DNA of 64,000 bases from Anaerolineales bacterium (GTDB lineage Bacteria; Chloroflexota; Anaerolineae; Anaerolineales; E44-bin32): positions 4,781 to 68,780 of the forward strand of contig DAOUEQ010000090.1 of assembly GCA_034430395.1 (NCBI GenBank). Direction: 5' to 3'. The position numbers and the translations under genes are program-made. The stretch's first letter is position 1, and each line of letters starts with the position of its first letter. Shown here one piece after another: positions 3,436 to 51,613 of this stretch. The notes under the pieces are model-generated. The model was not told the DNA's origin. It was given only the letters and a program-made list of their open reading frames with translations, and made no database searches.

Positions 3436-3459
3436 CTTGCGATTTTATCATGCCAACGA

Positions 3460-3475
3460 TGGCATAGTTCTTGCA
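3460..3475 (+). promoter_or_regulatory. sigma54 -24/-12 promoter upstream of rpoN
   Basis: TGGCAT-AGTTC-TTGCA matches consensus TGGCAC-N5-TTGC with exact GG-N10-GC spacing; intergenic, 52 nt before the rpoN ATG. Confidence 0.8.
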
Positions 3476-3527
3476 ACATAATTGCCAGCAATGTCCAGTC
3501 GATGTATACTCACCCGAGAGGCGCACT

Positions 3528-4943
3528 ATGTTCCGTCAGATCCAAGACCAATCTCTTAGACCACTCACGACAGCTCACCTTGCTCAAACGATGAGCCTTC
3601 TTGTTTTATCCAATCAGGAGCTGCACGATCGAGTGATCACAGAACTTGCATCGAATCCTGCGTTGGAGCTTCTTGACGAGCGCATCTGCCCGGGATGCCA
3701 TAAGCCCCTAAGCAATGCCGGACCCTGCCCCGTATGCAGCCGGCAGGCTGAAGGCGAAGAACCAATTGTATTTCTCTCCCCTCGGGATTCCTACCGACCA
3801 TCCAGAAAAAGAACACTTGATGATCAACCGCTGGAGCAAGAACCCGCAGCCCCAGAGGATCTCTCAATTTTCGTCATGCGGCAACTTGCCGCGGAACTTA
3901 AAGAGGAAGATCGGCACATTGCAGTTTACGTCCTTGACAGCCTTGATGAAGATGGCTTCCTGACCAGCCCCCCGCCCTACATCGCACAAGCCACTCGTTC
4001 CAATCTACCTCAGGTTATGAGGGTCATCGACTTGATACGTAAAGCGGACCCCGTCGGTTTGGCAACTAATGGTCCTCGAGAAACGCTTCTCGTTCAACTC
4101 GATCAGTTAGGTGATGGCGGAGAACCGCGCTGCGAATTGGCACGCCGATTACTGAGGGAATCCTTTGCGGAACTCGGTCGTAAAGAATTCGACAAGATCG
4201 CTCACAACTTCGAAGTCAGCCCTGCTGCAGTAAGAGAAGCCGCCACATTCATTCACGACAACCTAAACCCTTACCCCGCGCGAGCGTACTGGGGATCCGG
4301 ACGACAGCCGCAATCTGGCGACTCGAATGTTTACCACACCCCTGACGTCATGATCTCACGCAACCCCTCTGATGAATCTGGGCCACTGATGGTTGAAATA
4401 TTCTCGTCGATTTCGGGCTGGCTTCGGGTGAACCCTCTTTTCCGGCAAGCCATGAGGGAAGCGGATGAAGAGCAGAGCGATGAGTGGTCTGAGCATATGG
4501 AAAAGGCGAATCTCTTTGTGAAATGCATTCAGCAGCGCAATAACACAATGCAACGCCTGATGGGCTTGCTAGTATCACAGCAGAGTAGTTTTATTTTAGA
4601 AGGCGCTCGCCACCTCATACCCATGACGCGAGCCCAAATTGCAGAAGAGATCGGCGTCCACGAATCCACGATCTCAAGAGCAGTAGCGAATAAATCAGTC
4701 GCAATGCCCAATGGCAGAATAATTCCTCTTGCTAAATTCTTTGACCGCAGTCTCTCGGTGCGTGATCGTATCATAGAGATCGTCGAAAATGAAACCAAAC
4801 CACTTACAGACGATGAGATCGCCTCGCTTTTACACGAGGAAGGGATTAAGATAGCACGTAGGACTGTCGCGAAATACCGTGCGGTTGAGAATATTCTACC
4901 AGCTCGGTTGCGGGGTGCAAGAAAACTATCGCAGGCAGCCTAA
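3528..4943 (+). CDS. rpoN: RNA polymerase sigma-54 factor
   Basis: Region I LAQTMSLLVLSNQEL..ELASNPALE, HTH HESTISRAVANK, RpoN box ARRTVAKYR. ATG 3528 has a GAGAGG RBS; the track start 3471 lies inside the promoter. Confidence 0.95.
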   Translation: MFRQIQDQSLRPLTTAHLAQTMSLLVLSNQELHDRVITELASNPALELLDERICPGCHKPLSNAGPCPVCSRQAEGEEPIVFLSPRDSYRPSRKRTLDDQPLEQEPAAPEDLSIFVMRQLAAELKEEDRHIAVYVLDSLDEDGFLTSPPPYIAQATRSNLPQVMRVIDLIRKADPVGLATNGPRETLLVQLDQLGDGGEPRCELARRLLRESFAELGRKEFDKIAHNFEVSPAAVREAATFIHDNLNPYPARAYWGSGRQPQSGDSNVYHTPDVMISRNPSDESGPLMVEIFSSISGWLRVNPLFRQAMREADEEQSDEWSEHMEKANLFVKCIQQRNNTMQRLMGLLVSQQSSFILEGARHLIPMTRAQIAEEIGVHESTISRAVANKSVAMPNGRIIPLAKFFDRSLSVRDRIIEIVENETKPLTDDEIASLLHEEGIKIARRTVAKYRAVENILPARLRGARKLSQAA

Positions 4944-4953
4944 GGTGTAATCT

Positions 4954-6930
4954 TTGGCAAAGGATACTTCACCCACCAATCCGATCTCACGTTTATTTAA
5001 GGCTGACCCCTACCGCGAGCTTTTCCTCTCCCTCGCTGATACTCTAGACAACTCCGTCCTGGTATTATCCGGGGCGGAATCGCGTCTACTCACGTGCAAC
5101 CATGAATTCCTGCTTCTCTCCGGTTACGCCCGAAAGGATCTCGACGACCTAAACCCATCCGCCCTTTTTCCCGGCGAAGAGGGTCACGTTATGCTCAAGA
5201 AGATCCTTGACACATGGGAGAACCCAGACTGCACACTACAAGATGTTCCACTGCAGACACGCACAGGGGAAGTCGTCCTCATTGATCTTGAAGCACACCC
5301 GATCGCTCCTCCCCGAACAGCTGTCCTTCTTCTGATAAAACCCGCGAGTGCTCGCTCACAAATAGAGCAGCGTAAACTTGCTGAAGAGACTCTCTTACGC
5401 AGCTTGGAGAACATTACAAACTTGATGCTGATGGGAGGCACCTCCGCGGTGCCAACAGCACTCGAGCTCTGTCTTGAACCACTCTTCGCGTCATACACCG
5501 CAATATATAGGCTTTCGGCAAACTCGCCTGATTACTTTATCGAAGGTACGCTGCCCCCCGAATTCCCAGAAACGATCCCTGCCGACGCAATCGGCAATTT
5601 ACAGGTATTTTCCTCTTGGAGCCTGGGCCAACGCCCTGAGGGCGAATTACAGCGTGCCGCGAGAACCGCAGAACTCACCCACTTGAAGACTGCACTGATT
5701 GGTGATGATTCCGCTTGGATCGGCATTTTCATCGTCGGCTGGAAAGAGGAGATCGCGCTAAGTCCCGACATCGATCCGCTGATCCGCATCATCGCCAACC
5801 TCCTCCACACTGCCATCTACCTGAGCCAGCTTCGAGCCACCCTCACCGAAGGTGATACCTCCATGAACGAGCTTGAGGCGGAGATCACAAGCCAATTCGA
5901 GGCCATTTCCGATGTTCTGATAACTGTGGACTCTTCGCTCACTATAACAAGAGCGAATTCGGCGATAAACCGCCTGCTCGGTTATCACCCACCCGAAGTA
6001 ATAGGTCTTGCGATCCAGGATGTCCTTGTAGGTCCCGAGGATGTGACAACCACGATCCTTGACGCGCTGGGACACAAGCGCACGGCAGAACGCTCAAGAC
6101 TCATACTCCACCACCGTGATGGCACGCGCCTGCCAGTCCATTTACGGGTTGCTCCTCTGGCTGGAGCTGCAGACGGTCAATTTCTCATCGCCCTAGGTGA
6201 TCAATCCGAACAGCAAGCAATTGAAGATCAAACAGAAATCCTGGCCCAGAGAGCCTTGCTCGGCGAAGTCACCGCGATTTTCGCTCACGAAGTGAGGAAT
6301 CCCATCAACAACATATCCACCGGGGTCCAGCTTGTAGCCTCGCGCCTCGGTGAAAATCACCCACAATTCGAGGCGCTGGGCCGCATCCGGGCGGAGTGTG
6401 TTCGCCTCGATCAACTCATGAGCGACGTGCTCTTCTTTGCCCGCCCACTTCAACTGAAGATGGACCCTCTAGATCTCGCTGAGCTCCTTCAGAGAGTGAT
6501 TACTAGATGGGCGCCTCGCTTTAATCAAACCGGCACTCACTGCCATACTTCATACGATCCTGATACACCTCTCGCATCGGTGGATCCGAGGACACTTGAG
6601 CGAGTCATCGTAAACCTAGTCAGTAATGCTCTTGAAGCCATGACTGAAGGCGGCACACTCTCAATTAGTCTTGCACCAATAGGTCCTGCCCAAGATTGCA
6701 TGATCGAGTTGAAGGTCGCGGATACCGGCCCAGGCATCCCCCCTGATAAGATCCACCGGATATTTGATCCCTTTTTCACTACGAAAAAGGACGGGACAGG
6801 TCTCGGGTTAGCGATTAGCCGACGCATAATAACAGCACATAAAGGGACAATTCAGGTCGAGAGCTTTCCTGATGCAGGTACTGTGTTTACAATTCACCTC
6901 CCATCTGCGGACCTTAGTTCCAAGGAGTGA
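4954..6930 (+). CDS. Cytoplasmic PAS-domain sensor histidine kinase (NtrB-like)
   Basis: Two PAS-like segments; H-box FAHEVRNPINNI, N-box NLVSNALEAM, DTGPGI, FDPFFTTKKDGTGLGL; no obvious TM helix. Confidence 0.9.
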   Translation: MAKDTSPTNPISRLFKADPYRELFLSLADTLDNSVLVLSGAESRLLTCNHEFLLLSGYARKDLDDLNPSALFPGEEGHVMLKKILDTWENPDCTLQDVPLQTRTGEVVLIDLEAHPIAPPRTAVLLLIKPASARSQIEQRKLAEETLLRSLENITNLMLMGGTSAVPTALELCLEPLFASYTAIYRLSANSPDYFIEGTLPPEFPETIPADAIGNLQVFSSWSLGQRPEGELQRAARTAELTHLKTALIGDDSAWIGIFIVGWKEEIALSPDIDPLIRIIANLLHTAIYLSQLRATLTEGDTSMNELEAEITSQFEAISDVLITVDSSLTITRANSAINRLLGYHPPEVIGLAIQDVLVGPEDVTTTILDALGHKRTAERSRLILHHRDGTRLPVHLRVAPLAGAADGQFLIALGDQSEQQAIEDQTEILAQRALLGEVTAIFAHEVRNPINNISTGVQLVASRLGENHPQFEALGRIRAECVRLDQLMSDVLFFARPLQLKMDPLDLAELLQRVITRWAPRFNQTGTHCHTSYDPDTPLASVDPRTLERVIVNLVSNALEAMTEGGTLSISLAPIGPAQDCMIELKVADTGPGIPPDKIHRIFDPFFTTKKDGTGLGLAISRRIITAHKGTIQVESFPDAGTVFTIHLPSADLSSKE

Positions 6931-6933
6931 TGA

Positions 6934-8109
6934 ATGACCGCAACGGTATTGATCGTTGACGACGAAGAGACCGCCCGCAACTTCATCAGCGAAGCGTTGA
7001 CGGATGCTGGCTTTGAAGCAATCGAAGCGGGGACTCTGGCGGAAGCAAATAAAGCGATCGACAAGGGTGTAGGGGATATCATCCTGCTCGACGTTATGCT
7101 CCCTGATGGATCCGGTTTATCTTTGCTTGACCGCCTCGCCCTTGAAAATCCCCGACCACCAGTGATCTTGATCACTGCTTTTGGAGAGATTGATACAGCG
7201 GTCGATGCGATGAAGAAAGGTGCTCTAGATTTCCTACAAAAGCCCCTTGATCTAGATCGCTTGCTTCAAGCTATAGAGCGATCATCAGAGGTTGTGGGAC
7301 TGCGTCGGGAGCTTGATCTCCTGCGTCGGACTTCAATTTTGGAAACGGAGATGGTCATTGGTGAGACACAGATCATGAAGCAGATCATGCACGAAGCCGA
7401 ACGCGCGGCCCAAGCATCAGTCTCTGTCATGATCACAGGTGAAACCGGGACCGGCAAGGAAGTCCTCGCTCGGTCGATACACAGCTTCGGGCCACGTGCA
7501 GATACGCCTTTTATCCCGATTAACTGTGCTGCGCTGCCGGATACGATGATCGAATCGGAGCTTTTTGGACATGAAGCAGGAGCCTTCACCGGCGCGCAAA
7601 AAAAGAAGCCGGGATTGATCGAGATTGCCGACGGCGGCATCCTCTTCCTGGACGAAATCTCCTCAACTAAGCAGGAAATGCAAGCCAAGCTGCTGCGAGT
7701 CTTGGATGAGCAAAAATTCAGACGAGTTGGCGGAGTAAATGAAATTGGCGTTGACGTTCAAATCATCGCCGCTTCGAATCGGAACCTCCCGGTCATGATC
7801 GAGGAGGGAACCTTCAGAGAGGACCTCTACTATCGGCTGAAGGTAGTCGATCTTCACCTCCCGCCTCTTCGTGAACGAATTGTTGATCTCCCAGCGCTTA
7901 CAGGCAACTTCATCCGCCAAATCAACCTCCGTGTTGGCGGCATCGTAGAGGGAATCACACCGCGCGCACTTGACGCACTTAAAGCTCACTCATGGCCCGG
8001 TAACATCCGTGAACTCCGTCACGTGGTCGAGAGAGCAATTCTATTTTGCGACGAGGAAAACATCGATCTCGCTCATCTCCCCCCTGACATACAAGATCTC
8101 GCTTCCTGA
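6934..8109 (+). CDS. sigma54-dependent response regulator (receiver + AAA+ bEBP), no C-terminal HTH
   Basis: Receiver VLIVDDE / LLDVMLPD / KP; Walker A GETGTGKE, GAFTGA, Walker B LFLDEI, REDLYYRL, WPGNIREL. Ends 391 aa right after the AAA+ domain. Confidence 0.92.
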   Translation: MTATVLIVDDEETARNFISEALTDAGFEAIEAGTLAEANKAIDKGVGDIILLDVMLPDGSGLSLLDRLALENPRPPVILITAFGEIDTAVDAMKKGALDFLQKPLDLDRLLQAIERSSEVVGLRRELDLLRRTSILETEMVIGETQIMKQIMHEAERAAQASVSVMITGETGTGKEVLARSIHSFGPRADTPFIPINCAALPDTMIESELFGHEAGAFTGAQKKKPGLIEIADGGILFLDEISSTKQEMQAKLLRVLDEQKFRRVGGVNEIGVDVQIIAASNRNLPVMIEEGTFREDLYYRLKVVDLHLPPLRERIVDLPALTGNFIRQINLRVGGIVEGITPRALDALKAHSWPGNIRELRHVVERAILFCDEENIDLAHLPPDIQDLAS

Positions 8110-8115
8110 ACTCTT

Positions 8116-8131
8116 TGGCACGCTACTTGCA
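8116..8131 (+). promoter_or_regulatory. sigma54 -24/-12 promoter
   Basis: TGGCAC-GCTAC-TTGCA, perfect consensus, in the 57-nt gap before the GGAGG RBS and ATG 8167. Confidence 0.88.
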
Positions 8132-8166
8132 ACATTCGCCTTCAGACGCATAACCTGGAGGCGAAA

Positions 8167-8499
8167 ATGATTCCCCTTACATTTGGCGATGTTCAAATCC
8201 TCATAGCTGCAACCATCTTCATCTTGGGCTCCTTATTGGTACTCATCGGGGCTTTGGTTTTAGTCAGCCGAGGCTATTCCCGAGAGGTGCGGGCCTTGGC
8301 GGCTCATACCGCTAGGCTTGGCCAGAAAGGTATTGCCCAAGAGGTAACAGGACTTGTTAACAGTGCCACAGAGCTCGTCGCTTCTCTCAATAGTCTGGTT
8401 CGGACCGCAAGCGGGATAGGGATCATACTGATCTCAGTTGGATTAGGCTTGTTGTACGCAGGCTATTGGATCATTCAGCAAATCAGCTGGCCAATCTAA
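8167..8499 (+). CDS. Small two-TM membrane protein, unknown function
   Basis: Strong GGAGG RBS; two hydrophobic segments flanking an Ala/Leu-rich helical linker. Confidence 0.75.
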   Translation: MIPLTFGDVQILIAATIFILGSLLVLIGALVLVSRGYSREVRALAAHTARLGQKGIAQEVTGLVNSATELVASLNSLVRTASGIGIILISVGLGLLYAGYWIIQQISWPI

Positions 8500-8516
8500 C
8501 CGACTGGATGGGTACT

Positions 8517-11500
8517 ATGCTCAATGACGCGGAAATATTGCAGTATTTAAGCCGGGTCCTGAACGAAGACGATCTCTCCAGCGCAATTAGACGGATCCTG
8601 TATGTGCCAGAGGCGTGGAGCGAGGTTCACAAAAGCGAATTCCTCACCCTGGCTCTGGAGAAGATCGATCGCGCTGGTTGGTCCCCCGCCACTCTCGCTT
8701 CTCTAGCCCTCGGACAATCATCGTTATCTAAGGCGTTGGATTCTCTCTCCTCTGAGCAAGAGAGTCGCATCGCCCATTTACTGGAATTGGATGGTGCTGC
8801 GGAGAACAAGAACCTTGTGGATACCGCACTCCTCTCTGTCACACTTCTGAGAATCGAGACCGATGAAGGGCCAGGTGGGCTGACTGAAACGATACTAAGA
8901 AGCACAGATTTCTGGGCTTCGGCACTTTGCTGCGCGTGGCCATATCTCGAATTTGGGCAAGAAATAATCAATGCACTTATCCGAGAAGGAAGTCAAGCTG
9001 CCATAGCGCTTGTCATACAAATATTGCACGCGAACATGGATGTCAACCGTGCTGTTGAGATTCTTTCAAATCTTGACCATGAATCGACTCAGCGGGTATT
9101 GATCAGTTTAAACCTCAGGCACGAGGATGAGTTGTTCCTGGCTCTTTCAGAATCGATCCGTGATGACCTTCACCCTAATCCAGTAGATGGTCACCAAGAT
9201 CCGAGCGACCTTTCAGAACAGGCAATCATTCTTGCCGCATCAGGGAATTCCGCTGATGCGCAAAAACTCGTCTCTCAAGCCTGGGACCGAACCACATTGA
9301 TCTCAGCGGAGGTCGCCGATCGTTTGGCTGATATTGCCAAAATGGATAATGACCCGGTTCTTGAAGTGGAAGCGCGCAAGCAAGCGCTGCAATTAAAACT
9401 CTCGCCGCGACGGCGCGCCGAACTGGCGAAAGCTTACGTTCAAATAGATCGCCATCAAGATGCCCTCGATCTACTCCAAGAACCCGCGACGGCAGAGGAA
9501 TATATCGCCGCAGGACAAGCTCATCTACTTTCAAACGAGTCTGCGATTGCAGCGGATTGCTTTATTCAAGCCTATCAACACTCACTCAATGCACCTGCGC
9601 TAGAATCCACATGGATGGACTTGCTCTCCCGTGGACTTGAGGCTTCGGGTAAGTATCGCCAGGCGGTCCAGGTCCTCGAGATCCTTTCTGCACTAAAACC
9701 AACCGATGCAGAACTACGACATAATCTAGCCACGTTGCTCGAGAAGGCTGGTGATCCTGATACGGCAGCGGAGCAAGCGGCGTTCGCACTCACGCTGATG
9801 CCGAAATCGCTGCAATTACGCGAAATCTTAGCCCGTAACTTGCAGAAATCCGGCCGCCCAGAACAGGCTATCGCACATTGGCAAGCAATCACCCTGCATG
9901 AGAAACAAGCGCTTGCGAAGTTATGCGCCTGTGCGCTAGAAGCCGGGGATTACACTTTAGCGAAGCAAAGCGCGGAGGAACTCCGCTCAGAAAATCCTGA
10001 GTCAGTGGAAGCCCAAGTCCTTTTGGGAAAAGCTCTTTCTGCCTTGGGAGAGCATCAAGAGGCTGAAGCTCACTTAAAGAAAGTCACACAACTAACCCCT
10101 GCGGATGCCGATGCATGGATTGCTCTTTCGGAATGCCAGCTGTCGACAGGCGGTGAAAATGCTGCCGACAAGACATTAAATGCCGCTCTCGAAGCCTTAC
10201 CAGCGAGCGGAATCATTCATGTCGCGAAGGCAAACTCGCTCCGCAGCAAATCGATGCCAAACGAAGCACTCGAGCATATGCAGAAAGCCGTAGATCTTGA
10301 TCCCGAGAGCGCAGCTTGGCTTGTTGATTATGGGGATCTGCTCAGGGAGCTCGGTCGCATAGAAGAAGCAACGCCAATCCTGCAGTCTGCCCTAGATAAG
10401 CAGCCTGAAAACTGGAAGGCTCGCGAAGCATTAGCTCTCACCTTCGAGAGCCAGGGCGAAATGGCTTCGGCTGCAGAGCTTATCGACAACCTCCCCAGGA
10501 ATCTCGACCCAGATTCACTTTGGAACGCAGGTCGAATTCTCGTCCAGACGCCTTCCGAAAAAGAAGATTCCAAGCTTGTAATTGGTGTAAAGACCCTTGA
10601 AAAGGCCCGTGAGGTTGGATGTGACGACATAGCCATCGATTACTGGATCGCCCATGGCCTTCACCGCCAAGATCTTAACGAGGAAGCCATCAATTATTAC
10701 CAGACCTTCCTGAACAATTCTGAGGAGTCTCCCTGTGAGGCATATCTTCAAGGCGTGCTAGGTCTGGCGGATGCTGCCATCGCAATGGACGACGCACCTT
10801 TGGCAATTGAAACGATGGAGAAGCACCGCGGTCAGTACCCGACTTCACTCGAACTGCTCACCCTTCTGGCGAAAGCACATATGTCTAATAATGACTTCAG
10901 CGTAGCGAAGAATCTCGCTCGCCAGGCTTTCGAGCGAAACCCGATCGAGACTGAAGCACTCTCCATATTAAGCATAGCTGCAGAAGCAGATGGCTCGCTG
11001 GATGAAGCCATCGCCTCACGCAAACAACTCGCCAATCTCCAACCAGAGCAGCCAATGCCCTGGCTAGAACTCGCCCGGCTGACATGGCTCACCGGGAACA
11101 AGGACGCAAGCCGCAACCATTTGGCACGCGGCCTCTCCCTGGGCCGAAGGGATAAGCTAATCCTGCAAAAAGCTGCCACCCTATGCGGCGAGTTCAAATT
11201 CCACCCTTTGCAATTACGATTGCTCCAGAGCGCTTCATCCCTCGATGAGCATGACCCTGACATTCATCAGGAATTGGCACTTGCCGCTGAAAATATCGGT
11301 GATTTTGAACGGGCACAGCGGGCGTGGATGCATATCGCAGATCTTCTTCCAAACGACACTCACCCTCTTGACCGTGCCGCGGATGCACTCTGGAAACTGG
11401 ATAAGAGAACCGCCGCAATTGGCTTGTGGGAACAAGCTACGCAGATCGACTCGGAGAACGCACTGCACTTTACCGCGCTCGGACGAGCTTATATGCAGAT

Positions 11501-13655
11501 TGGGGAGATACAGCGCAGTCTCAACTGCTTTGGTCATGCCCTGGCACTTCAACCGGACGATCCAGCTTTCCTCATCGAAGCCGGTTCAGCAATGACATAT
11601 TCAGGCTCGCTTGAGGAAGGTTTGGGTGTACTACAGAAGGCAGTATCCATCGTGCCGAACGATCCCGTCCCGCTGATTGCTCTCGCCGAAACGCTCCACC
11701 TGCTCGGACGGAATACAGATGCCCGTGCGGCTTTGGATCGTGCGGCGATACTTGCGCCCCTCTCCCTGAAAGGTTTCGCCTTACAGGTCATCACATCTTT
11801 AGAGACAGGAGAACTTGAAAAAGCAAAGGATGCATTCGCCTCGGCTTCCAATTCAGAACCTGAGAATTTAAGCGATGTTCTATGGTCTACACGCAGCGCA
11901 GTGGCACTCGCCGACTGGGTCGCCGCTATTAACAGCATCGAAGAATGGATGGGTACCGTTAAGGACAATCCGGAAGCGGAACTTGAATATCTCCGCGGCC
12001 AGCTTCGGCTGCAGGACTTGCTTTGGGTGTACCGCACAGCGTGCGAGGCAGAGTCACATGCCCCTTCACAGGTTGATTTATCAGGAGAGAAAAAGAACTA
12101 TCTCCGACAGATGATCGATCAATTTAGGTCAGCCAGCTCCAATGAATCGATTGGCGAATTACTCCAGACGTGGTTTGAACTCACCACAGGTGCGAAGGCT
12201 CCTGATGAATGGAAGGTATCTCATAACACACCCCAGCACATCCTTCATGAATTCACCCAGGCGTTTGCCATCGCTCAAATTCGGGCGAACCGGCCAGGGA
12301 AAGCCGAGAATGCTCTCCTGCAAGACAATGGTCCAGGCTATAAGGACCCCTATCACGGTCTCCTACTCGGCATCAGTCGGATGATGCTCGGGAGATTTGA
12401 GGAGGCGCAAGAGAACCTTCAACAGGCTCATGGTAATCCTATGATTCGCCCGCTCGCACTTTTCCTAGAGGCTCAGTTATGGCTGAAAGCGGATGACAAT
12501 GAGAAGGCGATAACAGCGCTCAACAGCGCACTTTCGATCTGGCCCGATGAACCCTCCTGGCATGCCAAGCTCGCTTATCTTTACCAGGAAAACAACAAGC
12601 AGGAAGCAGCGTTACCCCACTGGCAGAATGCCGTTGAACTCGAACCCGAGAACGGGGAGTACCTAACTTCGCTTGCTCGTATCTACCGTGAAGCAGGTCA
12701 ATTGACGGACGCTCAAGCCACATACGCAAAAAGCCTGCAAACGTCATCCGTCACACCCAAAGTCTGGAAGGAGGCTGGCGAGGTCGCCCTTGCAATCGGA
12801 GATGCCGACAAAGCCGAAGCCTGGTTTGAGAGAGCTTGCTCCTTAATGCCCTCTGATGTTGGTGTGATGATCGGATCGTCACAAGCCGCTATGGCCCTTG
12901 GCAATGTGAAACTTGCGCTCGAGCATGCCCGCAAAGCTTATCGACTTGCTCCGAACAACGTGGAAGTCCTCACTGGATTAGGTGACGTTTTCGCTCATCA
13001 AGGTAGGCTTGATAAAGCCATCCAGATTTACGACCGTGCGTTACGCGTCTCCGAAGACGACAAAGCTGTCCAATTAGCCCGCAGTAAACTCCTGCTTCGA
13101 TTAGGGCGAACCGAGGAGGCCGTTGCCGACCTCCGGGTTCTCACGGAGGCAGAATCTGATTTCGAGGACGCGTGGGCTGTTCTTTCCGATGCATACTCTT
13201 CGACCGGCGACAATGATGCTGCTCTCGAAGCTGCCAGCCAGGCGGCGAAACTTGCTCCTCGCAATGTGGAGTACCAACTCCTTCTTGGACGGAAGTTCAA
13301 AGAGTCCGGTCAACTTGACCAGGCGCTTAGCGTATTAACGAAGGCTTCTTCTCTTGCACCCGTTGACGCTCGTATTGCCCGGGAGCTTGGCGATGTCCAT
13401 AAGGCTCGCCGGCAGGATACACAGGCTCTAAATGCTTATCTGCATGCGATTACACTCGACCCAAAGGAAGCGGCAGCCTACAAACAAGCAGGGCTGATCC
13501 TGAAGGTCTTGAAGTCATACCGACAGGCAGCGGATATGTTTGAAAAAGTTGTTTCGATAAATCCCTTGGACCCAGACGCGCTCCATCAGCTTGCTGCTGT
13601 ACGTGCGCTGCAATTAGTCCATGGCGGTATGGAAGAGCAGGCGGTGACCCTATGA
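8517..13655 (+). CDS. Very large TPR-repeat protein (~1700 aa)
   Basis: Dozens of helical repeats with TPR signatures (e.g. AWIALSECQL, WLVDYGDLLRELG, VLTGLGDVFAHQG, AYKQAGLILK). Start 8508 or 8517 uncertain; stop overlaps the next ATG (ATGA). Confidence 0.85.
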   Translation: MLNDAEILQYLSRVLNEDDLSSAIRRILYVPEAWSEVHKSEFLTLALEKIDRAGWSPATLASLALGQSSLSKALDSLSSEQESRIAHLLELDGAAENKNLVDTALLSVTLLRIETDEGPGGLTETILRSTDFWASALCCAWPYLEFGQEIINALIREGSQAAIALVIQILHANMDVNRAVEILSNLDHESTQRVLISLNLRHEDELFLALSESIRDDLHPNPVDGHQDPSDLSEQAIILAASGNSADAQKLVSQAWDRTTLISAEVADRLADIAKMDNDPVLEVEARKQALQLKLSPRRRAELAKAYVQIDRHQDALDLLQEPATAEEYIAAGQAHLLSNESAIAADCFIQAYQHSLNAPALESTWMDLLSRGLEASGKYRQAVQVLEILSALKPTDAELRHNLATLLEKAGDPDTAAEQAAFALTLMPKSLQLREILARNLQKSGRPEQAIAHWQAITLHEKQALAKLCACALEAGDYTLAKQSAEELRSENPESVEAQVLLGKALSALGEHQEAEAHLKKVTQLTPADADAWIALSECQLSTGGENAADKTLNAALEALPASGIIHVAKANSLRSKSMPNEALEHMQKAVDLDPESAAWLVDYGDLLRELGRIEEATPILQSALDKQPENWKAREALALTFESQGEMASAAELIDNLPRNLDPDSLWNAGRILVQTPSEKEDSKLVIGVKTLEKAREVGCDDIAIDYWIAHGLHRQDLNEEAINYYQTFLNNSEESPCEAYLQGVLGLADAAIAMDDAPLAIETMEKHRGQYPTSLELLTLLAKAHMSNNDFSVAKNLARQAFERNPIETEALSILSIAAEADGSLDEAIASRKQLANLQPEQPMPWLELARLTWLTGNKDASRNHLARGLSLGRRDKLILQKAATLCGEFKFHPLQLRLLQSASSLDEHDPDIHQELALAAENIGDFERAQRAWMHIADLLPNDTHPLDRAADALWKLDKRTAAIGLWEQATQIDSENALHFTALGRAYMQIGEIQRSLNCFGHALALQPDDPAFLIEAGSAMTYSGSLEEGLGVLQKAVSIVPNDPVPLIALAETLHLLGRNTDARAALDRAAILAPLSLKGFALQVITSLETGELEKAKDAFASASNSEPENLSDVLWSTRSAVALADWVAAINSIEEWMGTVKDNPEAELEYLRGQLRLQDLLWVYRTACEAESHAPSQVDLSGEKKNYLRQMIDQFRSASSNESIGELLQTWFELTTGAKAPDEWKVSHNTPQHILHEFTQAFAIAQIRANRPGKAENALLQDNGPGYKDPYHGLLLGISRMMLGRFEEAQENLQQAHGNPMIRPLALFLEAQLWLKADDNEKAITALNSALSIWPDEPSWHAKLAYLYQENNKQEAALPHWQNAVELEPENGEYLTSLARIYREAGQLTDAQATYAKSLQTSSVTPKVWKEAGEVALAIGDADKAEAWFERACSLMPSDVGVMIGSSQAAMALGNVKLALEHARKAYRLAPNNVEVLTGLGDVFAHQGRLDKAIQIYDRALRVSEDDKAVQLARSKLLLRLGRTEEAVADLRVLTEAESDFEDAWAVLSDAYSSTGDNDAALEAASQAAKLAPRNVEYQLLLGRKFKESGQLDQALSVLTKASSLAPVDARIARELGDVHKARRQDTQALNAYLHAITLDPKEAAAYKQAGLILKVLKSYRQAADMFEKVVSINPLDPDALHQLAAVRALQLVHGGMEEQAVTL

Positions 13656-16309
13656 TCAATCGAGATAACGTCATTCACCTCTTAGATACAGCGTTTCTCG
13701 CTGGGCGTGCTGATTACGTCAAGCATACAGCGAATGATTGGCTATCGGTATGGCCAGGCGATCTCGATATCCAGCTCATGCTCGCACGAGCGGAGATGGA
13801 GCTTGGTCAATTCCGTGAAGTAATCCAACGCTTGAATTCCGTCCTTTCAACCGACCCGGAATGTGTCAAAGGCTACGAATTAATGGCTAGTTCTTTGCGC
13901 ACGATCGGCGAGGTTGTAAGAGCGCGAATTTATGAAGCTTGTGCTAAGGCCCTCAAAGGTGAGGAGCTGAATTCACAGGATGCCCCAGCCTGGGTTATCC
14001 AGATCCAGTTAGCAATGAAATCCCTTGCCCGAGGAAATGTCCAGACAGCTATTACCGCAGCTCAAGTGGCTCTCACGACCGATCCTGATCTTGCGCTGCC
14101 TACCCTCGTTGCCCTTAATGCATCCAGAGCAGCAGGAAATCAGTCGGCTGTTTCTTCACTAGCAAGAACGGGTCATGAGCGGTGGCCGAATTGTGTCCTT
14201 TTCTTACTAACTTTAGCAAAGGATCTCTTACAAGAAGATAAAGTTGACGAAGGGGTCGCCTACCTTCATCAAGCGGTCAGCCACGATGCAAGCGGCAGGC
14301 TCGCGATGGACGTTCTGGGGAGCGATCATCCTTATCGCAATCTGTGGCCCGAAGAACAAGCGGCAGATTTGAGCAGGCCTATTCCCGCTGATGTAGCTGC
14401 AATCCTTGGCGACAACCGCCTCTCTAGTTCCACAGGTACCGACAAGAAACCTGTTGATGGCATCTCAAATAACGCGCATGACACACGCTCAGTCGAGTCT
14501 ACAATGGACACTAACGAGGAGCCCGCCCTCAAGTCCGAGCCGTCCGAAAACTCCATGCCAGAACCCGAACCATGGGAATCGTTCAGGGGACCTAATCCCG
14601 GGGATATTCGCGAGAGTGTCGAAAAGCCATTCTCCGAAGAGAGTTTGATAGAAATAGAGCAGGATTTCCGTCGGCTCGCTAGCCGCTTGAAATCTCGGCA
14701 GCGAGCACGAGATGAAGACGGGCGCTCACCAGTCTATGTTGTGCTTTCAAGCCATACACGCTTGCAGCAGAGTTACGGTGAAGATGGCTATTTGAGGGTG
14801 AACGATGCAGTTCTCTCTCTGGTAGAAGCGATCCGCCGCCGCTCAGGATGGTCAGCCTACCGTATCTACCCCGACGACCCGAGCACTCTCGACCCATTCG
14901 ATATCTCCCCCTGCGATCCGGGAAATGCATGGGAGATAAAACTCCGTATTGCCGATCTCGATCAATCCCTTGCCAAGCGCGGGGAGATGATCGGGGCTGT
15001 GCTGATCGTCGGCGGTCACGGGACCGTCCCATTCCACCTACTGCCCAATCCCACAGACGACGATGACGAGGTAGTTCCGTCAGACAATCCCTACGCTGCA
15101 ACGGACGAAAATTATTTTGCCCCAGAATGGCCTGTTGGACGCATTCCATTCGATCATGACCTCGACCAACTCGTAACACAATTGGAACGGTCGACCCAAG
15201 ATCACCGTCAGCTGAACCGCTCAATGGGTTTAGTGCAGCGTTTCAACCTCTGGCTTTTCCGCAGATTCACACGGCTATTCAGCGGTAACAAGAGGGTTCT
15301 TGGGTACACCGCAAGCATTTGGCGAAAAGCATCGTTTTCGGTCTTTAAAACGATCGGCGATCCTCGTACGATGATCACATCACCACCAACTGAAGCGGAC
15401 CGGCTGCCATCCGTTGCCATGCGGCCGGCGCGCCTCTCTTATTACAACCTCCATGGTTTGGAGGATGCACCTGAATGGTATGGCCAGCGTGATCCAGTTC
15501 GCGATGATAGCGCCTTGAGAGAGTTCCCTATCGCACTGCGCCCACAAGATGTCGTGAACAGCGGCCGAGCTCCCAAAGTCGTTTTCACTGAAGCATGCTA
15601 TGGGGCAAACTCCATGTCGAAAACCCCAGAATCTGCGCTCAGCCTTAAGTTCCTTTCATCAGGCAGCCGGGCAATTGTAGGTTCGACAAAGATATCCTAT
15701 GGTTCGATCACCCCCCCACTGATCGCTGCCGATCTACTCGGTCGGATATTCTGGCTGAACCTCAATCAGAAGTTGCCTGTCGGGGAGGCGTTACGACGCG
15801 CTAAATTGAAGCTCGCTACCGAGATGCACAACAGGCAAGGTTTCCTCGACGGTGAAGACCAGAAGACTTTGATTTCATTCGTCCTATATGGCGACCCACT
15901 ATTCACCCCTTCAGATATTGCGCCGATGCCGGGCGAGAAATCCGTCATCCGTAGGCGCACCAGACCCAGATTGATGAAAACGGTCTGTGCCCTGGGTGGA
16001 TCTGATGTCTCACCTGACAAATTGAAACCGAGCACCCTTAGGAAAGTCAAGCTCATCGTTTCTCAATATCTTCCGGGTATGCAGGAAGCTACGTGTAAGA
16101 TCCATCCCCAGCATTTCTATTGCTCGGGCGAGGATCATAATTGCCCTACCATGCATATGGGTGCAAAATCTCACGCTTCCTCCGATAGCGGATCGACCAT
16201 CATCACGCTCTCTAAGCACATCCCCGATGGCGAGCGCAACCACCCTCATTTTGCCCGCATCACGCTAGACGCGTCCGGTAAAGTGACCAAGCTGGCGGTC
16301 TCTCGCTAA
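13652..16309 (+). CDS. TPR + clan CD cysteine peptidase (gingipain/C25-like) with small C-terminal domain
   Basis: C25-like motifs VLIVGG..VPF, SDNPYA, PEWPVGRIP; catalytic dyad candidates NLH601G and EAC649YG; terminal GEALRRAK..FVLYGDP. Confidence 0.8.
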   Translation: MINRDNVIHLLDTAFLAGRADYVKHTANDWLSVWPGDLDIQLMLARAEMELGQFREVIQRLNSVLSTDPECVKGYELMASSLRTIGEVVRARIYEACAKALKGEELNSQDAPAWVIQIQLAMKSLARGNVQTAITAAQVALTTDPDLALPTLVALNASRAAGNQSAVSSLARTGHERWPNCVLFLLTLAKDLLQEDKVDEGVAYLHQAVSHDASGRLAMDVLGSDHPYRNLWPEEQAADLSRPIPADVAAILGDNRLSSSTGTDKKPVDGISNNAHDTRSVESTMDTNEEPALKSEPSENSMPEPEPWESFRGPNPGDIRESVEKPFSEESLIEIEQDFRRLASRLKSRQRARDEDGRSPVYVVLSSHTRLQQSYGEDGYLRVNDAVLSLVEAIRRRSGWSAYRIYPDDPSTLDPFDISPCDPGNAWEIKLRIADLDQSLAKRGEMIGAVLIVGGHGTVPFHLLPNPTDDDDEVVPSDNPYAATDENYFAPEWPVGRIPFDHDLDQLVTQLERSTQDHRQLNRSMGLVQRFNLWLFRRFTRLFSGNKRVLGYTASIWRKASFSVFKTIGDPRTMITSPPTEADRLPSVAMRPARLSYYNLHGLEDAPEWYGQRDPVRDDSALREFPIALRPQDVVNSGRAPKVVFTEACYGANSMSKTPESALSLKFLSSGSRAIVGSTKISYGSITPPLIAADLLGRIFWLNLNQKLPVGEALRRAKLKLATEMHNRQGFLDGEDQKTLISFVLYGDPLFTPSDIAPMPGEKSVIRRRTRPRLMKTVCALGGSDVSPDKLKPSTLRKVKLIVSQYLPGMQEATCKIHPQHFYCSGEDHNCPTMHMGAKSHASSDSGSTIITLSKHIPDGERNHPHFARITLDASGKVTKLAVSR

Positions 16310-16328
16310 CATCACGATCCTGGAGATA

Positions 16329-16344
16329 TGGCACGCTTCTTGCA
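16329..16344 (+). promoter_or_regulatory. sigma54 -24/-12 promoter
   Basis: TGGCAC-GCTTC-TTGCA, perfect consensus, intergenic, 30 nt before ATG 16375. Confidence 0.88.
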
Positions 16345-16374
16345 CCTATCTGTGCAGGAAGGAAGCAAAGTGCC

Positions 16375-17670
16375 ATGTCTCAAGGATTTGATCGACTCGG
16401 ATTTCATTATTATCACGACCAGGACCATTACACCCAAGCGGATCTTGACCGCTGGCTGCCAATTTTCCAATCTATCCAAACGAAATGGCTCACACTGAGT
16501 GGATCTTGTTCACTAGCCATCCCCGAGTTCTTCCTGCGCAAACTGATCGAGGCGGATATCAAGCCGATCATTCACCTCGAGGCATCAATCGACCAACTCA
16601 ATGTTCGCTCGCTCAGACCACTTTTCGCTAATTACACGGATTGCGGCATCAAGCACATCGTTCTCCATGACCGCCCGAATATGCGTACGCAGTGGGATCC
16701 CTCGAGCTGGTCTCGTGGTGATCTGGTCGAGCGATTCATCGACCACCTGATCCCCTTACTTGAGTTTCAAACCGAATATGGTCTAAAGCCAATTTTCCCT
16801 CCTCTAGAACCCGGTGGCGATTATTGGGATACCGCATTTCTTCGAACAGCGCTTGGATCCCTCCAGCGCAGAGGGAAAGGTGAATTGCTAAAGGACCTCA
16901 CGTTAGGTCTCTACCAATGGAGCTATGGGAAACCGCTTGATTGGGGAGCTGGAGGCCCAGAAGTCTGGACCTGCGCACAACCATACAACACCCCCACTGA
17001 CAGCCAGGACCATCGGGGTTTTCGAATAACCGAATGGTATTCCGCAATCTGCCGCGAGGTTGTCGGAATTGAACTGCCAATGTTAATACTCGCTGGCGGA
17101 ATTTCCCCTCAGACGCAGGTTGGAAGAACGGGAATAAAACCAGATCTTGATGCAATCACTGAAATTCTTGAGCACGCCAGGTGTGATGACCACCCCGGTC
17201 TGGTACTCAACCTCGCTCTAGACCCACATACGGTTTCCGAAGGGCTGCGAGATAGCTGGGAAGCCATCATTGAAAAACCATCGCCCTCAAGGCGAATAAA
17301 GGCTAAGGTAAAGAAACTGTTTGCTGGTGAAGAAACGAGCACAACAAACGCTACTCATAAGAAAATCATCTCACATTACGTGCTTCTCCCGATGTCAAAT
17401 CACCGCAACTTAACCCAGGATTGGGTAAATGTAGGACCCTTTGCGTTAGCCGTGAAACCAGTTGTTGGTTTCTCTGTGGGAGAAGCCCAATTCGCCGAAC
17501 GAGTGACGATCATCGGCCACGAGACGGATATTCCTGCTGCTATCGAAGACCAACTGCGCAGTGCCGGTTGTGATGTCAACCGCCTCCGAATGGCAGATGC
17601 GTCAGAGCTTCTTGTTATGGCGGCCGAACTAGCTTCAAAGAACCTCACTTCTGGAGTTGTCAATGCCTGA
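16375..17670 (+). CDS. Degenerate glycoside-hydrolase-like (clan GH-A TIM barrel) protein with small C-terminal alpha/beta domain
   Basis: IVLHDRPN aligns by eye to the V-x-x-NEPN motif and LPMLILAGG to LP-x-x-xTE-x-G; family assignment by pattern only. Confidence 0.5.
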   Translation: MSQGFDRLGFHYYHDQDHYTQADLDRWLPIFQSIQTKWLTLSGSCSLAIPEFFLRKLIEADIKPIIHLEASIDQLNVRSLRPLFANYTDCGIKHIVLHDRPNMRTQWDPSSWSRGDLVERFIDHLIPLLEFQTEYGLKPIFPPLEPGGDYWDTAFLRTALGSLQRRGKGELLKDLTLGLYQWSYGKPLDWGAGGPEVWTCAQPYNTPTDSQDHRGFRITEWYSAICREVVGIELPMLILAGGISPQTQVGRTGIKPDLDAITEILEHARCDDHPGLVLNLALDPHTVSEGLRDSWEAIIEKPSPSRRIKAKVKKLFAGEETSTTNATHKKIISHYVLLPMSNHRNLTQDWVNVGPFALAVKPVVGFSVGEAQFAERVTIIGHETDIPAAIEDQLRSAGCDVNRLRMADASELLVMAAELASKNLTSGVVNA

Positions 17671-18790
17671 TGCAAATTCCCTCGAGTACTTACAGCATCT
17701 CTCCCAACCCGAACATCCGCGGCAATTAGGAGAAGCCAAAGTCAAAGTCCTAGGCCTGGGTGGAGGAGGGTCGAACGCCGTCAATCGTATGATCGAGTTA
17801 GGGGTGATGGGCGTCGAGTTCATCGCCGCCAACACTGACCAGCAAGCACTAGCTTCCAGTCTTGCACCTACCCGCATTCAACTTGGACCACGGATCACTC
17901 GCGGTCTGGGAGCAGGTGGTGACCCAAAGATCGGCGCATCAGCAGCGATGGAAAGCAGCCGTGAGATCGCCGCGGTTCTTGCAGGAGCCGACATGGTCTT
18001 CATCACCGCAGGCATGGGTGGTGGTACAGGAACTGGAGCAGCTCCTGTCGCGGCCGAGATCGCGCGGGAGATCGGCGCAGTTGTTATCGCAGTTGTTACC
18101 ATGCCTTTTAGTTTCGAGATGAGCAAGCGCTCCCAGAATGCCCTGGAAGGTGTCCGTCTAATACAACCGCATACGAATACGCTGATTACCGTGCCAAATG
18201 ATCGCTTGTTGCAAGTCGTTCCCCGGGATCTAAGCCTGGAGGTCGCCTTTCGTATTGCGGATGATGTTCTGCGCCAGGGAGTCCAGGGGATCGCCGAATT
18301 GATCACCCGTCCCGGCTTGATCAACGTAGATTTCGCACATGTGCGCGAGATTATGACCCGCGGAGGTGGCGCCTATATGGCCATCGGGTTAGGGGAAGGT
18401 GAAGAGAAAGCGCCCGCGGCGATTAAGCAAGCGCTGCACCACCCACTGTTAGAGATCGACGGCCTCGATAGCGCCTCGGGTGTTCTCGTGCACTTCACAG
18501 GAGGCGAGGACCTCACGCTCTACGAAGTTGGAGAAGCCGTAAACGAGCTGCGCAATGTGACCACACCTGATATCGACATCATTCTCGGTGCCACGACGGA
18601 TCCAGCGATGACGGGCCGGGCGCAAGTCATTTTAATCTTCACCGGTGTGGGAGGCTGCCCAGTTGCTGCCACACAGGGGATTGATGAAATTGCAATCGCA
18701 TCTTCATCTCAGGTCAAAAGTAATCAGATAGAGGATCTCGACCTACCAACTTTTCTAAGAAGGCGCGCCGCTGTCGGCTCAAGGAGCTAA
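17663..18790 (+). CDS. ftsZ: FtsZ-family tubulin-like GTPase (paralogue outside a dcw cluster)
   Basis: GLGGGGSNAVNRM, ANTD, AGMGGGTGTG, T7 loop GLINVDFAHV, C-terminal peptide DLDLPTFLRR. ATG 17663 with GGAG RBS. Confidence 0.93.
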   Translation: MPDANSLEYLQHLSQPEHPRQLGEAKVKVLGLGGGGSNAVNRMIELGVMGVEFIAANTDQQALASSLAPTRIQLGPRITRGLGAGGDPKIGASAAMESSREIAAVLAGADMVFITAGMGGGTGTGAAPVAAEIAREIGAVVIAVVTMPFSFEMSKRSQNALEGVRLIQPHTNTLITVPNDRLLQVVPRDLSLEVAFRIADDVLRQGVQGIAELITRPGLINVDFAHVREIMTRGGGAYMAIGLGEGEEKAPAAIKQALHHPLLEIDGLDSASGVLVHFTGGEDLTLYEVGEAVNELRNVTTPDIDIILGATTDPAMTGRAQVILIFTGVGGCPVAATQGIDEIAIASSSQVKSNQIEDLDLPTFLRRRAAVGSRS

Positions 18791-18796
18791 CAAACT

Positions 18797-19027
18797 GTGG
18801 ATCAGGCAACGATAAAGAAACTCACCCGCGCCGTCGGGAAAAAGTTCCCCGAGATGGACCGAGTTAGACCTTCGGTAAGCAAGCAAGCCAGCAGGGAGGG
18901 GAATGTACAATTTTTGTTGACCTACAAGGGGAAGGCTGAACTGCCAGGGGGTCGTAAGATCAGCCGCATTGTTCGCGTCGTCGCCGATGAGCGGGGACGG
19001 ATCATAAAGATGAGTACATCAAAATAG
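18797..19027 (+). CDS. 76-aa basic protein homologous to the C-terminal domain of the upstream protease
   Basis: AAGGAG RBS, GTG start; pairwise similarity to the last ~95 aa of 13652..16309 (see findings). Confidence 0.8.
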   Translation: MDQATIKKLTRAVGKKFPEMDRVRPSVSKQASREGNVQFLLTYKGKAELPGGRKISRIVRVVADERGRIIKMSTSK

Positions 19028-19029
19028 CC

Positions 19030-19233
19030 ATGGACGAATATCTGATCAACCTCAACTCGTATGCAAAACTCGCTTTTTGGAAAGTTGCCGCTAGCCTTAC
19101 CGGAGCCGCGGTACGCAACCAACGACTCTTTAACCGCGTCTTATGGGTCGCGCCCATCGTTCTCGCCGCGGTCCTTGCCTATATGTTTGGCAGGTTGTTT
19201 GGCACAATTCTCCTATTGGGATTAGCAGCATAA
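19030..19233 (+). CDS. 67-aa small membrane protein
   Basis: 2 nt after the previous stop; hydrophobic C-terminal half; followed by a terminator. Confidence 0.6.
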   Translation: MDEYLINLNSYAKLAFWKVAASLTGAAVRNQRLFNRVLWVAPIVLAAVLAYMFGRLFGTILLLGLAA

Positions 19234-19256
19234 CTCGCGTACTGTCGTTGCAGGCT

Positions 19257-19292
19257 AAAGTCGCCCAGAGTACAATCCGGGCGACTTTCTGT
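19257..19292 (+). terminator. Intrinsic terminator closing the ftsZ-containing operon
   Basis: Stem AAAGTCGCCC / GGGCGACTTT with 12-nt loop and T-rich tail. Confidence 0.65.
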
Positions 19293-19319: not shown

Positions 19320-20072
19320 ATGCGAAGTCGATTGCCAGTTGTACTCTTTGTTCTTATGATGTTGGTCTGCTTCGCAGCAGGCGCTATTAGCGTGCTCCTT
19401 CAAGGTGAAGAACAAGATAAGAGCCCTCAAAAAACACCTTTCACATCGATTGAAATCGCACCCACCACACCTATCCGCAGTGAAGCCGTCTCCATTCTCG
19501 TGCTGGGAGTAGATGAAATCAAACAGGATAAGCCGGACCTTCTTTCCATCTGGTTCATAAGTTTCCACCCCCCTGATAAAAAGATACGTCTCCTGGGGTT
19601 GCCTTCGGACCTCCTTCTTCCGAACACCGAAATCCCTCTTAGCGAGGCTTTCTCCCTTTGGGAAGCTCCGGATTACGGGGCCGATTTCATCACCGCGATG
19701 GACCACTTCTCCCCTCATCCCATCTTCGGCATTGCCGTTCTAGATGAGGAGGGTTTCAGTGCTTTAATCGATTACCTGGGCGGCTTCTCCCTCGACGATC
19801 AGACATACGATGGCGCTTCAGCGATTGGCACGCTTCGCTTGCTTGAAGACCAACCACTTGTCGCTCTAAAGCTGCAAGCCCAAATCCTGCGCGCACTGAG
19901 CGTGAAAGTTCCGGACCTTGGTGAAACACCCGAGCTCACACAACTCACGCTCCTTCTACCGGAGAACGCGTACACATCCCCTTCACCAGCACAATTGGCG
20001 ACACTCGCCAGCCCCCTGCTCCCGTTGCAGGCGGATCTCATTGAGATCACTATTTTGGAGACCACACCTTGA
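19320..20072 (+). CDS. Degenerate LytR-CpsA-Psr (LCP) family protein
   Basis: N-terminal TM, then SILVLGVD, IRLLGLPSD, GFSALIDYLGG; canonical Arg residues absent. Confidence 0.65.
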   Translation: MRSRLPVVLFVLMMLVCFAAGAISVLLQGEEQDKSPQKTPFTSIEIAPTTPIRSEAVSILVLGVDEIKQDKPDLLSIWFISFHPPDKKIRLLGLPSDLLLPNTEIPLSEAFSLWEAPDYGADFITAMDHFSPHPIFGIAVLDEEGFSALIDYLGGFSLDDQTYDGASAIGTLRLLEDQPLVALKLQAQILRALSVKVPDLGETPELTQLTLLLPENAYTSPSPAQLATLASPLLPLQADLIEITILETTP

Positions 20073-50678: not shown

Positions 50679-50713
50679 GTAACTTCATAGGAACATTAAA
50701 GAGATATCAATAC

Positions 50714-51604: not shown

Positions 51605-51613
51605 AGGAACTAG

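Follow-up and report, generated by a model that had tools for sequence, protein, structure and literature searches.

A run of ten plus-strand genes at 3450-19292 of a 64,000-nucleotide stretch of the Anaerolineales contig DAOUEQ010000090.1 (hereafter the window, numbered from its first letter) is, on balance, likely to be the division locus, around ftsZ, of a large clade within the Anaerolineae, brought under the control of a sigma-54 switch. The genes are tightly packed into three co-oriented operons, each of which has its own conserved sigma-54 promoter, and the first also has a sigma-70-like promoter. By Pfam and NCBIfam profiles, the first block codes for RpoN (sigma-54), a sensor histidine kinase and a sigma-54 activator, or bacterial enhancer-binding protein (bEBP). 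The second codes for a small membrane protein (p110), a giant tetratricopeptide repeat (TPR) protein and a C25-type cysteine protease. The third specifies a TIM-barrel protein of 431 residues (p431), FtsZ and two small proteins of 76 and 67 residues (p76 and p67), and is closed by a terminator. The parts are of known kinds, namely a sigma-54 regulon with an activator lacking the helix-turn-helix (HTH) domain, an ftsZ operon and a C25 peptidase. Their apparent combination, with a sigma-54 promoter on ftsZ, clade-wide loss of the aspartate in the FtsZ T7 loop, and p431 and p76 as putative partners, was not found described in the literature searched. Searches on Anaerolineae and Chloroflexi FtsZ, the division and cell wall (dcw) cluster, ftsA, and sigma-54 together with ftsZ gave no account of the locus, in keeping with a preliminary description of this DNA that had named the gene set as a candidate undescribed system.

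Sigma-54 promoters and the ftsZ operon

The features of the locus, in order, are:

3460-3475, plus strand: sigma-54 promoter P1, TGGCATAGTTCTTGCA, an exact match 68 nt 5' of the rpoN ATG
3482-3510, plus strand: sigma-70-like promoter TTGCCA-17-TATACT, between P1 and rpoN, agreeing with the consensus at 10 of 12 positions
3528-4943, plus strand: rpoN (sigma-54), 471 aa, with Pfam Sigma54_AID, CBD and DBD all above cut-offs
4954-6930, plus strand: cytoplasmic sensor histidine kinase with an N-terminal sensory region, PAS, HisKA and HATPase (Pfam/NCBIfam)
6934-8109, plus strand: sigma-54 activator (bEBP) with a receiver (REC) domain, an AAA+ domain bearing GAFTGA, and the lid; PF00158 E 9e-69
8116-8131, plus strand: sigma-54 promoter P2, TGGCACGCTACTTGCA, 6 nt past the bEBP stop and 51 nt 5' of the p110 gene
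8167-8499, plus strand: p110, a 110-aa membrane protein with hydrophobic N- and C-terminal segments
8508-13655, plus strand (open reading frame, ORF, opens at 8466): giant TPR protein of about 1715 aa, matched end to end by many TPR families
13652-16309, plus strand: TPR plus C25-type (clan CD) cysteine peptidase, 885 aa, Pfam C25 at 40.7 bits against a cut-off of 23
16329-16344, plus strand: sigma-54 promoter P3, TGGCACGCTTCTTGCA, 46 nt 5' of the p431 gene
16375-17670, plus strand: p431, 431 aa, a TIM-barrel domain (aa 1-290) and a small alpha/beta domain (aa 330-420), of no known family
17663-18790, plus strand: ftsZ, 375 aa, with T7 loop NVDFAH and C-terminal peptide DLDLPTFLRRR
18797-19027, plus strand: p76, soluble, 76 aa, the most constant companion of this FtsZ
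19030-19233, plus strand: p67, 67 aa, with a C-terminal hydrophobic segment
19247-19295, plus strand: terminator-like hairpin followed by UUUCUGUU, dG -23.4 kcal/mol, z -3.27

The 64 kb contain exactly three matches to the pattern TGGCAY-N5-TTGCW, each on the plus strand and 46-68 nt 5' of the first start codon of a block. The chance expectation is 0.13, three matches were reached in none of 100 shuffles, and a looser sigma-54 pattern added no sites in the window. These three sites (3460, 8116 and 16329) are the very ones at which the preliminary description had placed a promoter for each block. Its other structural observations were likewise recovered: the full set of ten genes (by Pfam, NCBIfam and hydrophobicity), an activator without an HTH, a clan-CD protease, an Asp-to-His change in the T7 loop of FtsZ and a terminator hairpin 3' of the last gene. 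Its observation is hence confirmed, and its interpretation is partly supported.

The promoters are conserved in relatives. Related loci (labelled L) were taken as stretches of up to 10 kb on either side of a match in a genome collection, and gene order and residues were counted in the best 80 species loci of the 301 genomes with a p431 relative. The P3 position is occupied by (N)GGCAY-N5-TTGCA in about 77 of these 80, the first T of TGG being free to vary. P2 is kept, 50-56 nt upstream, in all 46 genome loci with p110 directly after the bEBP except the deeply diverged L074, and P1 lies 68 nt 5' of rpoN in each of the eight related loci long enough to include this region; its equivalent in L091, where RpoN is 62% identical, is CGGCACGGAACTTGCA. 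The bases of the N5 spacer vary between relatives while the promoter elements hold their position. The sigma-54 motif is matched 146 times in 1.24 Mb of related loci; 106 of these matches were automatically assigned to the two known positions. About half of the remaining 40 also fall at known positions, where ORF extension overran the promoter, and eight lie just 5' of ftsZ in distant lineages. A second motif is found 40-165 nt 5' of ftsZ, within or just past the 3' end of the p431 gene, in L068, L070, L075-L077, L079, L080, L082, L101 and L102, and would give ftsZ a sigma-54 promoter of its own in those lineages. In this clade, ftsZ appears to have come under sigma-54 long ago.

The sigma-70-like element in front of rpoN, the hexamers of which are also visible in the rpoN upstream sequences of relatives, is the probable basal promoter of this gene; it would provide basal expression, and P1 would therefore act as positive feedback. 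Such sites are scarce in the locus, with three found against 10.8 expected from the E. coli consensus, and none lies near ftsZ. The gaps from the preceding stop codon (or from the divergent trmFO start) to the promoter are 6, 20 and 25 nt, too short for an enhancer to fit between the genes, as would suit an activator unable to bind DNA.

The FtsZ encoded here passes the equivalog cut-off of TIGR00065 (377.8 bits against 295.2), scores 311 bits against B. subtilis FtsZ, and keeps both the Tubulin/FtsZ GTPase domain, with GGGTGTG, and the FtsZ_C domain. Its C-terminal anchor peptide, DLDLPTFLRRR, is also present in homologues. The T7 loop reads GLINVDFAHV, as against GLINLDFADV in B. subtilis, with His at the position of E. 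coli Asp212. Among the 80 species loci, this position is His in 70, Asn in eight and Asp in one, and in one further locus it could not be read; none of the 120 closest homologues has Asp, their residues being His, Asn or Gln, and roughly 15 of the nearest 50%-identity FtsZ clusters carry His, Asn or Ser. Beyond these clusters come Asp-type chloroplast and Dehalococcoidia FtsZs at about 50% identity. Judged from these alignments, a non-Asp T7 residue (His, Asn, Ser or Gln) is a clade-wide trait. As a separate observation, the highest score among the FtsZ cluster representatives belongs to an algal protein, P0361 (Closterium sp., 840 aa), with two tandem FtsZ cores, both Asp-type.

Regulators, putative partners and the linked protease

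The RpoN carries the RpoN box ARRTVAKYR and a DBD with its HTH, and scores 257.7 bits against TIGR02395, below the equivalog cut-off of 277.35; from its sequence it reads as a divergent member of the family with a Cys4 insert. This CxxC-(11)-CxxC insert, CPGCHKPLSNAGPCPVCSRQ (aa 54-70, window 3687-3737), separates region I from the core-binding domain; it has the look of a zinc ribbon, an unusual feature for RpoN. A TTG at 3471 was rejected as the rpoN start in favor of the ATG at 3528, which has a GAGAGG ribosome site before it. Although the preliminary description spoke of the system's own sigma factor, this may possibly be just the cell's only rpoN. In the kinase, no hydrophobic segment was seen in the N-terminal 319 residues. 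The activator has the phospho-acceptor Asp, Walker A and GAFTGA, and covers positions 1-381 of the 463 of the NtrC profile; hence, it has no C-terminal HTH or other DNA-binding domain. The activator ORFs of relatives are likewise 388-400 aa long in 45 of 49 cases, with GAFTGA in 46 of 49.

In the third block, the stop codon of the p431 gene overlaps the ftsZ start. The p431 model consists of a TIM barrel and a small alpha/beta domain (pLDDT 79), with strong conservation of a polar cluster formed by DRPN and PPLEPGGDYWD. No match was found in Pfam or NCBIfam, and the structural matches in the PDB are generic, with a query-normalised TM-score of at most 0.42. Of the earlier view that this is an inactive protein resembling a glycoside hydrolase, the barrel stands; the specific likeness does not, the matches being to barrels in general. 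Membership in the clan GH-A glycoside hydrolases was rejected, with strand 4 ending in DRPN and strand 7 in AGG and no catalytic Glu at either place. FtsA was rejected too: there is no FtsA/SHS2 match in Pfam, and the model is a TIM barrel rather than an actin-like fold. The C-terminal domain (aa 368-416, window 17476-17622) gives weak profile matches (E 0.012) to C. difficile SlpA HMW and Cwp8, on which we do not rely; these proteins carry cell-wall-binding CWB2 repeats, and p431 is without a signal peptide.

The p76 protein has no meaningful relative in Pfam or the PDB. In a profile comparison with hhalign (E 5e-4, 31% probability), it aligns to the final 70 residues of the protease, with FPEM corresponding to LPGM and RIVRVVaD.rGrI.r.StSk to FARLTLD.sGKVlKLAVSR in the two consensus sequences; pairwise BLASTP between p76 and the protease tail was not significant. 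The proposal that p76 is a paralogue of the protease tail is sustained as far as this weak profile match and the corresponding motifs carry it. A small ORF with a hydrophobic segment, like p67, follows p76 in 59 of 76 loci. The terminator hairpin is not listed by a simple terminator scan, its loop being too long for that scan. Just past it, at 19320-20072, lies a gene for a 250-aa protein with a signal-peptide-like hydrophobic N-terminus and no family match, which is kept in most related loci at 30-91% identity.

In the second block, p110 is 51-92% identical in relatives, and the giant TPR protein, in which no signal peptide was seen, is kept in position across related loci. The protease has His601-Gly602 and Ala648-Cys649, which are invariant in 60 orthologues, with the His and Cys 48 residues apart. 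The catalytic His is thus taken to be His601, within NLHG; the alternative candidate, His455 of GGHG, was discarded since orthologues do not conserve it. The protein further carries the motif of the C25 N-terminal sub-domain (GG..iP...SDNPY...vGRlP), and NCBI names its relatives "C25 family cysteine peptidase". A profile search against PDB sequences gave no match. The AF2 model (pLDDT 75, pTM 0.82) has gingipain K as its best PDB match (E 1e-9) and the SAVED-CHAT protease as its second, and the protease is thus predicted by the model to have the caspase-hemoglobinase fold. Its C-terminal domain (aa ~800-850, window 16050-16200) bears a conserved Cys/His cluster, C.IH.QH.gC.g.DH.CP, that is absent from p76 and may be a metal site.

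The preliminary description had expected conservation of the locus in Anaerolineae, and this is what is seen, with the marker p431 encoded in 301 species genomes and the order kept in the loci read. The p431 family has more than 1370 homologues, the named ones all coming from Anaerolineales, Anaerolineae or Chloroflexota metagenome-assembled genomes. In every one of the 77 among the 80 best loci that extend far enough, p431 is followed by FtsZ, as it also is in L095, L096, L100, L101 and L102, and p76 lies 3' of FtsZ in 74 of the 77. In all loci with an FtsZ identity of 66% or more and with enough DNA covered, the kinase, activator, p110, TPR and C25 genes stand immediately upstream. L074 keeps the entire gene order at 52% FtsZ identity. 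In L080, the p110-TPR-C25 block is instead found 3' of ftsZ. L101 and L102, with Asn-type FtsZs of 51-55% identity, have the order C25-p431-ftsZ-p76, with sigma-54 motifs 5' of the protease gene and directly 5' of ftsZ. In L097, with a Ser-type FtsZ, the order is C25 protease, mraZ, peptidoglycan (PG) amidase, FtsZ, a p76-like gene, activator, rpoN and kinase; here, a membrane-anchored protein with Amidase_2 and Big_7 domains (3312-5468 of that locus) replaces p431 before ftsZ, with mraZ 1 kb upstream. As read from gene order, p431, ftsZ and p76 form the conserved core, and the C25 protease and TPR scaffold appear as recurrent, not obligatory, companions of it. One related contig, L011 (JAIWHF010000034.1), is labelled "Methanosarcinales archaeon" and is probably mis-binned, because it carries the Anaerolineales locus at 81-96% protein identity.

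The locus is flanked by housekeeping genes, namely trmFO, an amino-acid ABC transporter, plsX, fabF, sucCD, scpB and ftsH. The 64-kb window contains no further ftsZ or activator and no ftsA. Elsewhere in the window, a cluster at 48795-53613 codes for a Ser/Thr kinase with a PQQ beta-propeller, a PP2C phosphatase, a DnaJ plus VWA protein and an FHA protein. On the minus strand, 35340-38792 codes for a 1150-aa protein with an Agl23-like (flippase-associated) membrane domain and NHL/ScyF-like repeats, and 26571-27608 for a Band_7 protein with a C-terminal excisionase-type HTH, which is syntenic in L001 and L002.

Alternative readings of the locus

Several points weigh against a sigma-54-switched division locus. 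The comparison is one of loci, and a second ftsZ, more sigma-54 promoters and more activators may lie elsewhere in the genomes, which is the main risk. The p431-ftsZ-p76 trio often stands alone in distant lineages with no protease or sigma-54 genes nearby, and these genes may hence be accessory; such standalone trios retain the upstream sigma-54 motif, as in L095 (a 2.4-Mb Anaerolineaceae contig), where it lies 38 nt before the gene. The synteny of close relatives reaches unrelated housekeeping genes, such as plsX and fabF, and is therefore weak evidence of function in the closer relatives. The ftsZ of L097 has no clear sigma-54 motif upstream, the sigma-70 scan rests on the E. coli consensus, and the T7 His may still support catalysis. 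The interactions, transcription and activities ascribed to the locus are all predicted.

The first alternative, which we consider unlikely, is that the three operons are linked by co-regulation only. They would then be members of one sigma-54 regulon, with the TPR/protease operon unrelated to division and the adjacency an inherited synteny. The extension of this synteny to the ABC transporter as well as to plsX and fabF speaks for such a view, as does the occurrence of the core trio without a nearby protease in several lineages. However, the protease stays beside ftsZ through rearrangement and deep divergence (L074, L080, L097, L101 and L102), and the domain common to p76 and the protease tail would tie the two operons together.

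The second alternative is that of the preliminary description, namely that the gene codes for an additional FtsZ paralogue, specialised and impaired in its GTPase, that serves differentiation, filament remodelling or alternative septation, while a canonical dcw ftsZ divides the cell. The replaced T7 Asp and the dedicated regulators, along with a protease reminiscent of HetF, are what one would expect of it. Also in line with it, no ftsA or dcw genes were found in the window or the related loci. Yet this claim is not borne out by the FtsZ itself, which scores above the equivalog cut-off and has retained its C-terminal peptide. Its identity is 66-93% in genomes in which p431 is only 37-46% identical, a conservation above that of the partner genes and the protease, which matches or exceeds every gene of the locus except the activator. 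The non-Asp residue is clade-wide, and no close Asp-type sister clade is present among the nearest 150 FtsZ cluster representatives; the nearest Asp-type FtsZ looked at stands in a classical murB-ddl-ftsQ-ftsA-ftsZ cluster. Further against an extra copy, the p431-ftsZ-p76 trio can be found alone among housekeeping genes, the ftsZ of L097 is near mraZ, and ftsZ is single-copy in nearly all bacteria. We therefore regard an extra FtsZ as improbable. The non-Asp FtsZ looks most simply like the clade's own division FtsZ, which, as gene order suggests, would have lost ftsA as a neighbor and gained p431 (or the amidase) and p76.

A third alternative, an anti-phage or conflict system of TPR protein, caspase-like protease and inactive cytoskeletal effector, is very improbable: caspase-like peptidases and, rarely, FtsZ/tubulin effectors are reported from conflict systems of multicellular prokaryotes, with FtsZ there belonging to other systems (PMC7159879), and the SAVED-CHAT protease is the second structural match, but PADLOC found nothing beyond generic TPR, on which the defense reading was rejected, the STAND NTPase and sensor-nuclease parts are absent from the locus, and this is a core chromosomal locus in hundreds of species with a highly conserved FtsZ.

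Known systems and a possible mechanism

Regulatory parallels are offered by CtcB/CtcC of Chlamydia (PMC7482065) and FlgS/FlgR of Helicobacter and Campylobacter. As here, a REC-AAA+ activator without a DNA-binding domain is paired with a histidine kinase, and a small sigma-54 regulon is tied to a change of cell state; the lack of intergenic room for an enhancer in our locus is of a piece with this likeness. In contrast to both, rpoN, kinase and activator here form one operon with its own sigma-54 promoter, and the targets include ftsZ. To our knowledge, no other sigma-54 regulon includes ftsZ, and Chlamydia has no FtsZ. In Myxococcus xanthus, sigma-54 is needed for growth and drives cell-fate programmes via many activators, which, unlike the activator here, bind DNA; we know of no case in which ftsZ is a direct sigma-54 target in Myxococcus.

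The third block resembles the classical ftsQ-ftsA-ftsZ end of the dcw cluster in that ftsZ is predicted to be co-transcribed and translationally coupled with an upstream gene of about 430 aa, and in that the C-terminus of FtsZ retains the peptide to which membrane anchors bind. It differs in having a TIM-barrel protein rather than the actin-like FtsA upstream, two genes 3' of ftsZ, for a conserved 76-aa protein and for a small membrane protein, a sigma-54-type promoter, and a replaced T7 Asp. The same T7-loop position is changed in the E. coli FtsZ D212 mutants (ftsZ2/D212G and D212A), whereas the change here is natural and fixed clade-wide as His, Asn, Ser or Gln. In E. coli, D212G lowers the GTPase to 14% of wild type and the treadmilling speed to 6.7%; D212A and D212G are the most severe chromosomal mutants studied, and the cells still divide (bioRxiv 10.1101/077610).

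Gingipains K and R (Peptidase C25, Porphyromonas) match the protease best in structure and have in common with it the C25 N-terminal motif and a dyad of His-Gly and Ala-Cys. Unlike these, the protease has no signal peptide, pro-domain, Ig-like domain or type IX secretion system (T9SS) C-terminal domain, and its fusion partners are TPR repeats and a C-terminal domain that resembles p76 and bears a Cys/His cluster. In Anabaena, HetF, with PatU3, shows that a clan-CD-type protease can belong to the divisome in a filamentous bacterium (PMC8406250, PMC9457339). A caspase-fold cysteine protease and division in a multicellular filament are common to both; the link to division is only genomic here, and the resemblance is only functional. 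The enzyme described here belongs to another peptidase family (C25 type), is cytoplasmic and has an N-terminal TPR domain, and no PatU3 relative was seen.

If this is a division locus under a sigma-54 switch, the cytoplasmic PAS kinase would sense an internal cue and phosphorylate the activator. This would open sigma-54 holoenzyme complexes from solution, like FlgR and CtcC, and would drive each of the three promoters, its own operon thereby receiving positive feedback. One output operon would supply FtsZ along with p431, p76 and the small membrane protein, and we take p431, p76 and p67 to be candidate lineage-specific partners or anchors of FtsZ in the place where ftsA stands in other bacteria. 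The FtsZ, without the T7 Asp that activates GTP hydrolysis by the neighboring subunit, would be expected to turn GTP over and to treadmill slowly. The remaining output operon would supply the membrane protein, the giant TPR scaffold and the C25-type protease, which is predicted to be active. With its C-terminal domain being a putative paralogue of p76, the protease could dock on the partner of p76, and might there cleave a component of the division machinery or the septum.

A bolder form of this model may be put forward tentatively, even as we hold it to be doubtful. In it, the clade's only ftsZ would be transcribed from sigma-54 promoters only, making sigma-54 and a single HTH-less activator an essential, signal-gated license for division. 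The FtsZ would have given up the T7 Asp, p431 and p76 would replace FtsA, and the TPR-scaffolded C25 protease would tune FtsZ by competing with p76 for a docking site.

The regulation of FtsZ and the role of its GTPase are central in bacterial cell biology and have been studied in few model phyla. The locus points to an uncommon mode of division control. It offers a natural lineage with an FtsZ missing the equivalent of E. coli Asp212, an ftsZ behind a sigma-54 promoter, of which we have seen no other description, partner genes without a known family and, in bacteria that form multicellular filaments, a protease linked to them. It thereby makes testable how much GTP turnover division needs, what replaces FtsA in Chloroflexota, and how division is gated in slow-growing filaments.

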